The position numbers were made by a program, and so were the translations under genes. Shown here piece by piece: positions 7,166 through 11,083 of a stretch of 64,000 nt of DNA. The stretch is from Nitrososphaerales archaeon (GTDB lineage Archaea; Thermoproteota; Nitrososphaeria; Nitrososphaerales; Gagatemarchaeaceae): positions 23,607 through 87,606 of the forward strand of contig JASHOZ010000056.1 of NCBI GenBank assembly GCA_030038395.1, read 5' to 3'. The first letter of the stretch is position 1, and the number at the start of each line of letters is the position of its first letter. The notes under the pieces are model-generated. The model was not told where the DNA came from, ran no database searches, and saw nothing but the letters and a program-made list of their open reading frames with translations.

Positions 7166-8137
7166 GTGGATAAGCACCAGACTTCGATTCTGCAGGTTTC
7201 CGACAAGTGCCCGCAGTGCGGCAGGCGCGCTCTGATTGAAGACGCGCACACGGGGGAGCTGACGTGCCAGCAGTGCGGCTTCGTCGTGAGCGAGCGGGGG
7301 GTCGACCAGGGCCCAGAGTGGAGGATGTTCAGCGACGATGGCGCGACCGACAGGGGAAGAGCGGGCGCCCCCACGTCGATCACCTACAAGGACATGGGAC
7401 TATCGACCGTGATTGGCAGGTCCGGTAGGGACGCGTCTGGGAGGGCTTTCGCTTCGCCGATGCGGAGCACGATGGAAAGGCTCAGGAAGTGGGACAACAG
7501 ATCCCCCGCCTTCGGCTCCGCCGAGAAGAACCTCGGCGTCGCGATGCGAGAGCTCGACAAGATGGGCGACAAGCTGGGCGTCTCGCAGGCGGTGAGAGAG
7601 CGCGCCGCCCACATCTACAGGAAGGCACTGGAGAGGGGTCTCCTCCGAGGAAGGTCCATAGTCGGAATCTCGGCCGCGTCACTCTACGCCGCGTTCAGGG
7701 ATACAGAAACCCCCAGGACGCTCAAGGACATCGCCGCGGTCAGCAACCTCGGCAAGAAGGCGGTGGCGAGGGACTACCGCATCCTGCTGAAGGAGATGGA
7801 CCTGAACATGCCGGTGGCGGACGCCGCGAGGAACGTCAACAGGATAGCCTCGAAGGTAGGGCTCCCCGAGAGGGTCGCGCGCAAGGCGATAGAAATCGTC
7901 AGGATGACCGAGGAGAGGGAGATCTCCGCGGGGAAGGCGCCCATGGGGCTGGCCGCGAGCGCCCTATACCTGGCTGGCGTGATGGAAGGCGAGGTGCGGA
8001 CCCAGAAGGAGATAGCGGAAGCCGCAGGGGTGACCGAGGTGACCGTGCGCAACAGGTACAAGGGGCTCAGGGCCGACCTCGGGAAGACGCTCGGGCTAGA
8101 CTCCGAGCTTCCGGAACCTCGGATGGCAGCAGGGTAG
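7166..8137 (+). CDS. tfb: transcription initiation factor IIB (TFB)
   Basis: Zn ribbon 'CPQCGRRALIED...CQQCGFVV', B-finger region 'DQGPEWRMF' and two cyclin-fold repeats. GTG start, with AT-rich 'TTTATTA' about 40 nt upstream. Confidence 0.92.
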   Translation: MDKHQTSILQVSDKCPQCGRRALIEDAHTGELTCQQCGFVVSERGVDQGPEWRMFSDDGATDRGRAGAPTSITYKDMGLSTVIGRSGRDASGRAFASPMRSTMERLRKWDNRSPAFGSAEKNLGVAMRELDKMGDKLGVSQAVRERAAHIYRKALERGLLRGRSIVGISAASLYAAFRDTETPRTLKDIAAVSNLGKKAVARDYRILLKEMDLNMPVADAARNVNRIASKVGLPERVARKAIEIVRMTEEREISAGKAPMGLAASALYLAGVMEGEVRTQKEIAEAAGVTEVTVRNRYKGLRADLGKTLGLDSELPEPRMAAG

Positions 8138-8145
8138 CAAAAGAG

Positions 8146-8259
8146 TGGACTGGGGGGGACCTTCACCCATGAAACCACCCTTAAGGTGTTCCACTGCGAT
8201 TTGAACCCCCGACCTCCTCCGTGCGAGGGAGGCATTCTACCAGGTTGAACTACCAGCCC
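8146..8259 (-). tRNA. tRNA-Ala (anticodon CGC) with a ~40-nt insertion in the T-arm (about 8159-8198)
   Basis: Hand-folded. Acceptor GGGCTGG/CCAGTCC includes the G3:U70 Ala identity pair. D-arm GTTC-AACCTGGTA-GAAT, anticodon arm CCTCC-CTCGCAC-GGAGG, T-stem GGGGG, T-loop TTCAAAT. About 40 nt then precede CCCCC, which closes the T-stem. Discriminator A, no encoded CCA. Confidence 0.8.
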
Positions 8260-8454
8260 ACATGAAAGGACCTTCCACGGCGTTCTTATCTTCTTCTTTT
8301 GCTTCCTTCTTCACGTGAGGCGGATGCTAATGGCGTTGAACCATCGATCATGGCCCGCGTCAATCACTCCTTCATGCATACGGGTCCTGGGAGGCCCAGC
8401 TGCATCAGAGACGGCAGAAACCCTTTTCCAAGCCCACAGAAAGCGAGCCAGTAG

Positions 8455-9672
8455 ATGCCCCGCGGGGACTTGGCCGATAGGCTCCTGTGGCTCGCGAACG
8501 AGAAGGAGATCAGGAACGCCGAGACCACCGACTCTTACTTCCTGAACACGAAGAAGGTCCTCCAGAGGAACCACATCGACAACAGGGTGGTGATGGAGGT
8601 CTACGCGAGGGAAGTGCCGTACGCCGACGGCTGGGGGGTCGTCAGCGGCGTCTACGAGGTGGCGAAGCTCCTCGAAGGCCTCCCCATCAGTGTCTGGGCC
8701 TTCAACGAGGGAGACGTCTTCGTCGCCGACGCATCCAAGGCGATCTACGAGCCGCTAATGGTCATCGAAGGGAGGTACATCGACTTCGCCGAGTACGAGA
8801 ACCCGATTCTCGGCCTCCTCACCACCTCTACGAGCGTGTCTACCAAGGCCGCCAAACTCAGGCTCGCGGCGGGACCGAGGCTCCTCATGAGCTTCGGGAC
8901 GAGGCGCGTTCACCCCGCCCTCTCGGCGCTGGTCGAGAGGAGCTGCTACATCGCCGGGTTCGACGGCGTCTCGAACGTCCTCGCCGCGAAACTCCTCCGG
9001 CTCGAGCCGTCTGGTACGATGCCCCACGCCCTGATTCAGGTCGTCGGGAGCCAGGAAAAGGCATGGCGCCTGTTCGACGAGACGATCCCCTCGAGCGTCC
9101 CACGTGTCGCTCTTGTGGACACCTTCTGGGACGAGAAGGCAGAGTCGATACGCGCCCTAGAGGTGCTCGGGAAGAGGCTGTGGGGGGTTCGGCTCGACAC
9201 CCCTGCGTCGAGGCGCGGGGACTTCCTCAAGATAGTCGAAGAGGTGAGGTGGGAACTCGACATACGGGGGGGCAAGTCGGTCAAGATAATCGTGTCGGGG
9301 AGGCTCGACGAGGAGTCCATCAGGAAACTCAACTCGGTGGCGGACGGTTACGGGGTCGGGACGGCCGTGGCCTATCCTCCAGCCGTGGACCTGAGCGCGA
9401 AGATAGTCGAGGTGACGGACGGCGCACGCGAGTTCAGGGCGAAGAGGGGCGGCCTTGGGGGGCGAAAAGGGGTCTACAGGTCGCCCGGCTTCAACGACTT
9501 CGTGGCTCTGGAAGGGAAGCGGAGGCCCGAGCGCTCAGTGCCTATGCTCCAGCTGTTGCTGAAGGACGGAAAACTCGCAAGAGACTTCGACAGCGTCGAT
9601 ACGATCCGCTCCCGAGTGAAGGCGGGTGTCGAAGAGCTGAGGTCGGCGCAGCCTTCCATTTCCTGGAGATGA
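8455..9672 (+). CDS. pncB: nicotinate phosphoribosyltransferase (archaeal type)
   Basis: 405 aa with an NAPRTase-like N-terminus '...AETTDSYFLNTKKVLQ' and a TIM-barrel-length body. Directly followed by pncA. Confidence 0.8.
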   Translation: MPRGDLADRLLWLANEKEIRNAETTDSYFLNTKKVLQRNHIDNRVVMEVYAREVPYADGWGVVSGVYEVAKLLEGLPISVWAFNEGDVFVADASKAIYEPLMVIEGRYIDFAEYENPILGLLTTSTSVSTKAAKLRLAAGPRLLMSFGTRRVHPALSALVERSCYIAGFDGVSNVLAAKLLRLEPSGTMPHALIQVVGSQEKAWRLFDETIPSSVPRVALVDTFWDEKAESIRALEVLGKRLWGVRLDTPASRRGDFLKIVEEVRWELDIRGGKSVKIIVSGRLDEESIRKLNSVADGYGVGTAVAYPPAVDLSAKIVEVTDGAREFRAKRGGLGGRKGVYRSPGFNDFVALEGKRRPERSVPMLQLLLKDGKLARDFDSVDTIRSRVKAGVEELRSAQPSISWR

Positions 9673-10257
9673 CGGGGGTTCCGAAACGCGCTCATCGTCG
9701 TTGACGTTCAGAACGACTTCTGCGCGGGGGGCGCCCTCCCCGTCGGCCACGCCGACGAGATCGTCCCCCTCCTGAACAGTGTGATAGAGGGATTCGCTCG
9801 CGTTAGCCTTCCAATGTTCTTCACAAGAGACCTGCACCCCCGCAACCACGTGTCCTTCGTCGAGCGAGGCGGACGGTGGCCCCCCCACTGCGTACAAGGG
9901 ACCCGTGGGGCGGACTTCCATCCCAAGCTCGTCATCCCGAAAGGAGCAGCAGTGATAGACAAGGGGATGGGGGCGGACTTCGAAGCCTATTCGGGGTTCC
10001 AAGGGACGGACCTAGAGAGACGACTTAGAGACGAGAAGGTAGGGAGCGTCTACATCGGAGGACTCGCTACCGACTACTGCGTAAAGGAGACGGCAATCGA
10101 CGCGGTGGCGGCCGGGTTCAAGGCCTGGGTGATGCGAAACTGCGTGAGGGCAGTCGACCTCCGCCCCGGCGATTCCGAGGCGGCGCTGCAGAAGATGGCT
10201 GGCGAAGGCGTCAGCTTCACAACATCTCAGAAGGTCACGTCTTCGCTGGGCCGATGA
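9673..10257 (+). CDS. pncA: nicotinamidase/pyrazinamidase (isochorismatase fold); start codon unresolved
   Basis: 'ALIVVDVQNDFCAGGALPV' carries the catalytic Asp, 'WPPHCVQGTRGADFH' the metal site and 'GLATDYCV' the catalytic Cys. The homologous region begins at the codon right after the pncB TGA. The first in-frame canonical start (GTG 9781) would remove the catalytic Asp. Confidence 0.8.
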   Translation, partial: RGFRNALIVVDVQNDFCAGGALPVGHADEIVPLLNSVIEGFARVSLPMFFTRDLHPRNHVSFVERGGRWPPHCVQGTRGADFHPKLVIPKGAAVIDKGMGADFEAYSGFQGTDLERRLRDEKVGSVYIGGLATDYCVKETAIDAVAAGFKAWVMRNCVRAVDLRPGDSEAALQKMAGEGVSFTTSQKVTSSLGR

Positions 10258-10300
10258 AGCACCGCAGTTTTAATACCTCGGAAAGCTTCCTCATATCCGC

Positions 10301-11083
10301 ATGAAGTCGACGAGGAAACAGTCGCTGGGGCTGTACTTCTCTCCGACAGAAAGGAGCTTCCACATCGTCGTCAGGCTCAAGGACGTCCCCGGCGCGCTCA
10401 GCAGTGTGCTCGAGATTCTCAGGGGGCATGTGGACCTCGTGAGCAGCGTGAGTTACAGCGTGGAGAACGAAGGAGCGATATGGAGCGGGTTCGGGAAGTC
10501 GATATCGTCTTCTGACACGGCGGAGTCGCTCAGAAGGAAGATCGAAGGCCTGCCGATGGTCATCGAAAGCGAGGTGAAAGGCAGCGACGACGGGCTCCTG
10601 ATAGACTCGTTCCACTCTGGCCTGGAGGTCGCCCCCAATAGACCCGCCGTCGTCTTTCCGATCGTCGGCGTCGGCAGCATCTACGACCACCTCGCCAGAA
10701 TCCTCGGCACCGGCGGCGAGACCATAATGTTCGAGGAAGGCTGGGCGCTGGGGAAGTCCAGCGGTGACTACCTGAACTCGATGCTCGGGCCAGGGCGGCT
10801 GGAATGGAAGCTGAGGGCGCTCTTAGGGACATACGGTACCATCGGCTGGGGGGCCGCCACGCTGCGCGTGGAGAAGCCCGGAGAAGACTTCGCCGTCCAG
10901 ATTCGTGAGTGCATGGAGTGCTCTGGGAAGGGCAAAGAGAGGAAGGGGTGCAACCTCCTGCGCGGCACACTGACGGGCGCATTTACGACGCTGGCAGGAA
11001 AGGAGTTCAAGTGCGAAGAGACGAAGTGCAGGTTCGCAGGGTCGCCCTTCTGTGAGTTCAACCTACGGGCTAGCGCCGAGTAG
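10301..11083 (+). CDS. ACT-domain plus V4R-domain protein (putative small-molecule sensor)
   Basis: N-terminal ACT-like 'FHIVVRLKDVPGALSSVLEIL'. The C-terminal Cys pattern 'CMECSGKGKERKGCNLLRGTLTGAF...CRFAGSPFCEF' is typical of V4R domains. Confidence 0.55.
   Translation: MKSTRKQSLGLYFSPTERSFHIVVRLKDVPGALSSVLEILRGHVDLVSSVSYSVENEGAIWSGFGKSISSSDTAESLRRKIEGLPMVIESEVKGSDDGLLIDSFHSGLEVAPNRPAVVFPIVGVGSIYDHLARILGTGGETIMFEEGWALGKSSGDYLNSMLGPGRLEWKLRALLGTYGTIGWGAATLRVEKPGEDFAVQIRECMECSGKGKERKGCNLLRGTLTGAFTTLAGKEFKCEETKCRFAGSPFCEFNLRASAE

Follow-up and report, generated by a model that had tools for sequence, protein, structure and literature searches.

We found that pncA, encoding nicotinamidase, follows pncB, encoding nicotinate phosphoribosyltransferase (NAPRTase), in the same reading frame behind a single TGA in the genome of a soil archaeon, with no usable start codon of its own, and that its closest relatives share this layout. 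The window, meaning the whole stretch of 64,000 nucleotides analyzed, corresponds to contig C9:23607-87606 of a Nitrososphaerales metagenome-assembled genome (MAG; 1.49 Mb, 69 contigs, 91% complete, GC content 0.617), and homologues of the window proteins carry the labels Nitrososphaerales or Thaumarchaeota. From the comparisons described below, it appears highly probable that the arrangement is real and the gene expressed. As for the way in which PncA is made, our best overall explanation, which we hold only tentatively, combines an inherited layout, a selected gene, and leaky read-through of UGA.

The upstream open reading frame (ORF; Table 1) matched both Pfam QRPTase_N and QRPTase_C, and its homologues at 80% to 82% identity bear the source name nicotinate phosphoribosyltransferase; by these family features, its predicted product is an archaeal QRPTase-type PncB. 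From position 9673 onward, the same frame translates as RGFRNALIVVDVQNDFCAGG... (also written RGFRNALIVVDVQNDF...) and matched the Pfam family Isochorismatase (PF00857) with an E-value of 7.4e-34 over residues 6 to 186 of its 194 codons. In an alignment of 16 homologues, residues D11, K97, and C136, which we take to be the catalytic triad, and D53, H55, and H72, which presumably form the metal site, were all invariant. Judged from its sequence, the downstream frame would encode a complete nicotinamidase, and the part preceding any start codon has a coding score as high as that of pncB. No canonical (ATG, GTG, or TTG) or near-cognate start codon is found in this frame upstream of the conserved strand Ala-Leu-Ile-Val-Val-Asp, and the public gene call (P0002, 147 aa) begins even downstream of the first in-frame GTG at 9781. 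Coupling by termination-reinitiation at an ATGA overlap expects the overlapping start to be in frame with the downstream gene; here, the ATG at 9669 lies at -1 and its frame ends at the TGA at 9702-9704. All the elements reported in the first-pass annotation, namely the stop, the ATGA overlap, the run of 5 G, the same-frame pncA, the GTG at 9781, and the removal of one G, which yields MTGFRNALIVVDVQ, were recovered in the sequence. Of the coding codons of this genome, 5.2% are ATG, GTG, or TTG; the chance of meeting none of them in 36 successive codons is about 0.15, and that of sharing the pncB frame is 1/3. Neither the start-free run nor the shared frame is remarkable by itself. The feature not due to chance is that a conserved N-terminal strand and the catalytic Asp lie upstream of every canonical start.

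We looked for close relatives by protein searches, as a DNA-level search of the genus was too insensitive at 66% to 87% identity; a look-up of the exact window PncB sequence returned no record. The closest PncA among 5.8 billion proteins was P0001 (78% identical), located on L067, a contig assembled independently (Logan), on which PncB is 93% identical to that of the window. The L067 junction reads tcc tgg agg TGA cag gcg ttt cga ggc gca ctc gtc gtc gtg GAC: pncA is in the pncB frame, 33 nt separate the stop from the Asp codon, and no canonical start precedes the conserved strand. The window's cGGGGGttc corresponds to aGGCGttt in L067, which has no G run. A third locus, L148 (TGA tca acc tcg cgg aag gcc ctt atc gta gtt GAC), forms a clade with the window and L067 (support 99/95), and all three are start-less in frame 0, that is, in the frame of pncB. 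The junction of L216 is of the same kind, start-less in frame 0 and without G run, and this locus probably shares the window's layout as a further relative of the clade.

These comparisons bear on the first suggestion of the first-pass annotation, an assembly error at the homopolymer. If the true sequence had 4 G, the Asp codon would lie 32 nt from the stop and pncA would regain a normal, in-frame overlapping start in the ATGA configuration, as in 15 relatives, and homopolymers are in general typical sites of indels. On the other hand, the 33-nt layout recurs without any homopolymer in each of the three nearest lineages, and 4 G in the window would demand an extra independent indel. Because the nearest independent relatives share the start-less, in-frame 33-nt junction without a G run (L067, L148, and probably L216), we consider an assembly slip very unlikely; the sequence comparisons indicate that the sequence is real and its layout inherited. 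The first-pass annotation had also named an observation that would speak against its reading, normal starts in relatives together with an unconserved in-frame TGA arrangement; comparison of the junctions did not reveal this in the nearest relatives.

A survey was made of 65 distinct junctions at which pncA follows a pncB ending in Trp-x-stop, collected from the genomes of 55 species in the genus, from 80 metagenome loci, and by targeted look-ups. Results showed that the Asp codon lies 32 to 35 nt after the stop in nearly all of them, most commonly at 33 nt. A canonical start was present in 40 junctions, 13 had near-cognate codons only (ATC, ATT, CTG, or ACG), and 12 had neither. As the last six loci were chosen for their truncated-looking gene calls, the fraction without canonical start is 19 of 59 when they are left aside. 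The three frames differ in their composition. Frame 2, in which the overlapping GTG or ATG is in frame or a TTG or ATG lies nearby, comprises 18 junctions with a canonical start and none of the other types; frame 0 has 18 canonical, 9 near-cognate only, and 12 with neither; and frame 1 has 4 canonical, 4 near-cognate only (at codon -8 or -9, counted back from the Asp codon), and none with neither. In 15 relatives within the genus, the homologous overlapping GTG or ATG is in frame and is the pncA start, while in frames 0 and 1 the canonical starts lie 5 to 10 codons ahead of Asp, most often at codon -8. The 12 start-less junctions, which fall into at least 6 independent origins in the PncB and PncA tree, are all in the pncB frame, a weak contrast (12 of 39 in frame 0 versus 0 of 8 in frame 1; Fisher p = 0.075). 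Their pncB stop is TGA in 11 of 12; an overlapping ATG or GTG is likewise found in 11, and pncA is at +1 relative to that start in all 12.

Near-cognate codons tend to stand where related loci have a canonical start. Three loci (L008, L047, and L065) have ATC at -8, the position of ATG in the sister loci L007 and L009; the ATC of L060, at -9, corresponds to ATG in L023 and L024 and to TTG in L062; CTG (L049, L071, and L081) and ACG (L017, L069, and L218) occupy positions at which relatives have GTG or ATG; and the near-cognate codon of L217 is ATT. This recurrence across the genus, with ATC, CTG, ACG, or ATT where other species have ATG, GTG, or TTG, had been overlooked in the first-pass annotation. 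In L065, the second copy in genome G061, two in-frame stops (TGA CGG TAA) are followed directly by the ATC at -8; by its sequence, read-through would be impossible at this locus and the ATC is the sole candidate start. Two pncB-pncA copies are present in each of G061 and G049, perhaps as paralogues or through contamination of the bins.

Called starts of the 120 best PncA homologues peak at 8 codons ahead of Asp (40 of 120), and in 19 of the 120 the called start is at most 3 codons before Asp or after it. In the clade around L005, starts differ by branch, with TTG at -10 (L149), ATG at -6 (L052 and L053), and GTG at -5 (L006, L013, and L046). Such a repeated regain of starts at different positions suggests that the start-less state may represent low but sufficient expression rather than a dedicated recoding device.

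We asked whether the start-less genes are under selection. The ratio of nonsynonymous to synonymous substitution rates (dN/dS) ranged from 0.16 to 0.25 for start-less pairs (window/L067, 0.24; L005/L010, 0.17; L048/L051, 0.24; window/L216, 0.16), compared with 0.17 to 0.23 for pairs with normal starts (L007/L009, 0.17; L003/L004, 0.23); the exception, window/L148 at 0.31, comes from 67 codons only. These values indicate purifying selection on start-less pncA. As the gene is still under selection yet has no start, PncA is presumably made by some non-standard event of low efficiency at the junction. The alternative, that pncA is a recent pseudogene or is unexpressed in the window's genome, could account for the missing start codon and for the public call of a truncated 147-aa protein, and about one third of the genomes of the genus have no pncA, so that it is dispensable in some lineages. 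However, the frame remains open over 194 codons and keeps every catalytic and metal residue, its pre-start coding score equals the level of pncB, and L067 and L148 are start-less as well, at a dS of 0.48 or more and dN/dS of 0.24 (L067) to 0.31 (L148). We therefore regard a pseudogene as quite unlikely.

The variation among the 12 start-less junctions also indicates where translation enters the frame. At codons -5 to -1 (Ala, Leu, Ile/Leu/Val, Val, Val), the first and second codon positions have zero entropy, except that codon -3 switches at its first position between codons for Ile, Leu, and Val; the third positions vary with 1.25 to 1.46 bits. Because variation is confined to third positions, these codons are translated in the pncA frame, and it follows that translation enters frame 0 upstream of codon -5. 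The same pattern rules out a GTG, CTG, or ATC within codons -4 to -1 as the sole start. Upstream of -5, the window reads CGG GGG TTC CGA AAC and L067 reads CAG GCG TTT CGA GGC, none of them near-cognate. In the lineage of the window, the entry route must thus be read-through from pncB, a +1 shift from the overlapping ATG or GTG, or an unprecedented non-cognate initiation. We rank them with read-through first, +1 slippage second, and non-canonical initiation or reinitiation third.

According to the last of these routes, ribosomes that have finished pncB, perhaps held by the Shine-Dalgarno (SD)-like GGAGATGA, would start in frame 0 at a non-AUG codon, in the window the ATC at 9694 or a non-cognate codon near -8. 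Archaea are known to carry out termination-reinitiation (PMC6728339, PMC10666635). The 13 near-cognate junctions, mostly at places where sisters have ATG, GTG, or TTG, fit this route, as do the ACG at the start of the DRG gene and the CTG at the start of the FtsY gene in the window's genome and about 20 more genes of that genome without canonical start. The SD-like element has its own limits as evidence: most relatives carry GGAGGTGA at its site, and it precedes codon -8, at which relatives start pncA, but its bases also encode the conserved Trp-Arg-stop of pncB, AGG is the main Arg codon, and an SD-like motif precedes only about 13% of genes. Moreover, the window and L067 offer no near-cognate codon upstream of -5, and, as codons -5 to -1 are clearly translated, the ATC at -3 cannot be the only start. 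To our knowledge, starting at TTC or CGG would be unprecedented. Internal starts also predict start-less junctions in frame 1, and 0 of 8 were seen. Non-canonical initiation is a probable account of the 13 near-cognate junctions but not of the window, for which we consider it improbable.

Correction at the RNA level, either by transcriptional slippage dropping a G or by C-to-U editing that makes a start, was the least credible of the explanations weighed, and we give it hardly any chance. In 10 of the 12 start-less junctions, codon -8 is GCG or TCG, one C-to-U change from GTG or TTG, but it is TTC in the window and TTT in L067, which editing would not turn into a start, and NCG simply encodes the Ser, Thr, or Ala found at this position. 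We know of no mRNA editing in archaea. As for slippage, 5 G make too short a run for it to be efficient, and the run is not conserved.

A +1 frameshift is a more serious candidate. Ribosomes would initiate or reinitiate at the ATG at 9669, read ATG ACG GGG, and slip on GGG-G before GTT, releasing free PncA starting MTGFRNALIVVD. The GGG-G geometry would let the genome-encoded tRNA-Gly(CCC) re-pair, the next codon GTT is rare (0.57% of codons by genome codon usage), the SD-like GGAGATGA lies 2 to 5 nt upstream, as in prfB, and the overlapping start and constant +1 offset of the start-less junctions are what such a shift would use. Between the window and L067, the changes ACG to ACA and GGG to GGC leave the residues of the ATG frame unaltered; however, by our own Poisson estimate, the three window/L067 substitutions fit read-through equally and do not discriminate. 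Against the shift, the 12 start-less junctions have no slippery motif in common: the window has ACG GGG G, but L067 has ACA GGC G, L148 ATC AAC C, L216 ACC TAC C, L005 ACC GGC C, L014 ACG CCC T, and L050 ACC GTC G, and L010 has GTA in place of GTG. No RNA structure was found in the 4 junctions folded, and no programmed +1 frameshift is established in archaea (PMC8211752). A slip on GGG-G is conceivable for the window itself, where we rate it as unlikely, and it cannot be the general mechanism. Of the first-pass proposal of a real or programmed frameshift, the real offset survives, as an inherited 1-nt displacement from the overlapping start; its programmed part does not fare well, the G run and slippery motif being unconserved and no stimulatory RNA structure being seen.

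We favor, with less than even confidence, leaky read-through of UGA, which the first-pass annotation had listed last, as a PncB-PncA fusion made through the TGA, and which remains viable and now leads the candidate mechanisms. The junction offers what read-through needs, namely a downstream ORF in frame, no intervening stop, and selection on that ORF. Read-through is placed first because it asks for no more than a common frame and a UGA, the stop of 11 of the 12 start-less junctions, because it is applicable alike to lineages with and without the G run, and because bacteria possess bifunctional NAPRTase-PncA proteins in both domain orders. In the genus, pncA sits directly behind pncB, with the Asp codon 32 to 35 nt after the stop. 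In the lineage of the window, an offset of 1 nt has cut pncA off from the overlapping ATG or GTG and put it in the frame of pncB. Ribosomes translating pncB would leak through the UGA at low efficiency, yielding mostly free PncB (about 45 kDa) and a little PncB-PncA fusion of about 66 kDa, with the junction ...PSISWR-X-RGFRNALIVVDVQ, where X would be Trp, Cys, or Arg. The fusion would catalyze two consecutive steps of nicotinamide adenine dinucleotide (NAD) salvage. Such a state may be tolerated and leaky, repeatedly repaired by new starts in related lineages, and the G run would be incidental. The broader claim, that several lineages of the genus make PncA only as a read-through extension of PncB by near-cognate decoding of a plain UGA, is more doubtful still.

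Several observations weigh against read-through. L010 is start-less and its stop is TAA, which should read through poorly. The start-less junctions have no conserved read-through context (the base after the stop is C in 9 and T in 3), and no downstream RNA structure was found in the 4 start-less junctions compared with shuffles (z from -1.1 to +1.1). ARAGORN reported no suppressor tRNA, no UCA anticodon, and no odd anticodon loop in the genome, in which it missed many intron-bearing tRNAs. Genome-wide, the excess of backup stops after TGA was not significant (12.9% versus 9.7%, p = 0.07). A search of over 1000 close homologues of PncB and of the long proteins containing PncA showed no lineage in which the stop has turned into a sense codon; it is kept in all 65 junctions, and the listed PncB homologues are all 394 to 439 aa long. 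A +1 shift from the overlapping start would account just as well for the occurrence of start-less junctions in frame 0 only. Finally, archaeal read-through is established only for selenocysteine (Sec) and pyrrolysine (Pyl) (PMC8037382, PMC8211752). Overall, the junction has no conserved signal typical of programmed recoding, whether a slippery site, structure, suppressor tRNA, or Sec.

Two related possibilities were rejected. Sec recoding of the UGA was not supported, as ARAGORN, which misses many intron-bearing tRNAs, found no tRNA-Sec in the genome and Rfam had no match near the junction. A true PncB-PncA fusion gene in the lineage was dismissed as well, since no QRPTase-type fusion occurs among the long PncA-containing proteins. 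Nicotinamidase domain fusions do occur among the public proteins P0243-P0361, with bacterial-type NAPRTase (both orders), NAD synthase, a QueG-like reductase, and argininosuccinate lyase; none in that set joins nicotinamidase to an archaeal QRPTase-type PncB.

Comparison with known systems places the locus nearest to termination-reinitiation coupling at ATGA or GTGA overlaps, established in Haloferax volcanii and E. coli (PMC6728339, PMC10666635). Both have co-directional genes of one pathway and a 4-nt overlap of stop and ATG, and 15 relatives of the window have the overlapping start in frame; in the window, by contrast, the ATG is one base out of frame and classical reinitiation would give only an 11-residue peptide. 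UGA read-through is exemplified by the A1 protein of phage Q-beta and by eukaryotic UGA-C read-through genes. As in these, two coding regions are parted by one in-frame UGA with C as the next base, and the putative extension is a complete functional domain; unlike them, the junction has no conserved context or structure, one start-less relative has TAA, and the host is an archaeon, a domain in which only Sec and Pyl read-through are established. The prfB (RF2) +1 frameshift resembles the window in its SD-like element a few bases upstream of a re-pairing GGG-G with a slow codon next, but here conservation of the site fails already at the sister species, we see no regulatory logic, and the shift would occur at codon 3 of the reinitiated ORF. 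NAPRTase-PncA fusions of both domain orders exist in bacteria (e.g., Nitrospina; P0254, P0302) and combine the same two NAD-salvage activities, including the PncB-then-PncA order, whereas theirs is a continuous ORF with a PF04095-type NAPRTase and here the stop is kept and PncB is archaeal and QRPTase-like. Near-cognate starts are known from the AUU of E. coli infC and pcnB; the 13 related junctions with ATC, ATT, CTG, or ACG, mostly at the homologous position, and the DRG ACG and FtsY CTG are comparable, but the pncA of the window has no near-cognate codon at or upstream of the translated strand. Archaeal recoding is established only for Sec, Pyl, and the -1 frameshift of Saccharolobus fucA1 (PMC8037382, PMC8211752).

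We also looked for start-less genes elsewhere in this organism by a codon-usage screen of the MAG, in which N-terminus conservation was judged by reading the sequence, with comparison to relatives limited to DRG and FtsY. The screen gave about 20 of 1336 likely genes in which a conserved N-terminus precedes every ATG, GTG, or TTG (Table 1), including DnaK, cox1-like, HAM1/RdgB, Rrp41-like, and RpoH-like genes; DnaK (…EKIIGIDLGTTNS) has no canonical start, and the cox1-like gene has a CTG immediately behind an in-frame TGA. The DRG GTPase (G000 contig C57:18761-18763, L151) has ACG at the position at which 29 relatives start canonically, with no canonical start nearby in any frame; DRG starts in the genus are TTG (16), ATG (10), GTG (3), and ACG (1), so that 1 of 30 is non-canonical. 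FtsY (G000 contig C30:4810-4821, L181) has CTG at the homologous start position, in the same frame behind the TGA of a prefoldin-like upstream gene, as does that of G065; its starts in the genus are TTG (22), ATG (4), and CTG (2), with 2 of 28 non-canonical. TTG is thus the commonest start of both genes (16 of 30 and 22 of 28 at loci L151-L210), yet it accounts for only 0.5% of internal codons in the window's genome. A genome-wide enrichment of start-less genes in the frame of the upstream gene was tested, and no preference was found. The organism appears to tolerate near-cognate starts more widely, as read from these gene sequences. Among about 55 pncA loci not preceded by pncB, most have a canonical start at least 7 codons before Asp and a handful are ambiguous. 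Because uncoupled pncA, DRG, and FtsY mostly have canonical starts, the loss of the start is specific to the tightly coupled pncB-pncA junction.

Table 1. Features of the pncB-pncA junction (window positions) and start-less gene sites elsewhere in the MAG (contig:position)
Feature	Position	Strand	Remarks
pncB	8455..9672	+	ORF; archaeal QRPTase-type nicotinate phosphoribosyltransferase (predicted), 405 aa, C-terminus ...PSISWR then TGA
SD-like GGAGATGA	9665..9672	+	Last pncB codons and stop; 6 nt upstream of codon -8
ATG of ATGA overlap with 11-codon ORF MTGVPKRAHRR	9669..9704	+	Out of frame, -1 relative to pncA
pncB stop TGA	9670..9672	+	Next base C; pncA open in same frame beyond
pncA (nicotinamidase) frame	9673..10257	+	194 codons and stop at 10255-10257
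G5 run GGGGG	9674..9678	+	Possible GGG-G +1 slip site, then rare codon GTT; absent from sister lineages
ATC at codon -3	9694..9696	+	Sole in-frame near-cognate codon ahead of Asp
Catalytic Asp codon GAC	9703..9705	+	33 nt from first base of pncB stop
GTG, first in-frame ATG/GTG/TTG	9781..9783	+	26 codons beyond Asp codon; use would delete catalytic Asp
Start-less gene site	C63:6821		
Start-less gene site	C44:36715		
Start-less gene site	C18:7483	minus	
Start-less gene site	C5:8197	minus	
Start-less gene site	C23:17893		
Start-less gene sites, about 15 others			

Upstream of the gene pair, the region between the TFB gene and pncB (8146-8259) is a tRNA region with a weak Rfam tRNA match only; over 8100-10400, the sole Rfam match was this weak tRNA (19.5 bits, minus strand, 8197-8259).

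In conclusion, the sequence comparisons point to a coupled gene pair of a known type with an altered junction, at which read-through is a candidate mechanism. A selected enzyme gene that is start-less in at least 6 independent lineages indicates that these archaea can translate in some non-standard way, by read-through, a +1 shift, or non-AUG reinitiation, at levels high enough to be useful. Either of the first two, if true, would be new for Archaea. If read-through is the right explanation, it would be the first physiologically required archaeal stop-codon read-through without Sec or Pyl, and termination at UGA in archaea would leak sufficiently to support a selected enzyme. The junction is compact and clearly delimited, and its natural variants, in all three frames and with canonical, near-cognate, or no start, form a ready reporter series. 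Moreover, gene finders truncate such pncA genes, with public calls at MDVQ..., MQRDF..., or later that lose the catalytic Asp. Because truncated calls remove this residue, the NAD-salvage capacity of the group is mis-annotated, a problem that touches about 16% of the 120 closest homologues.

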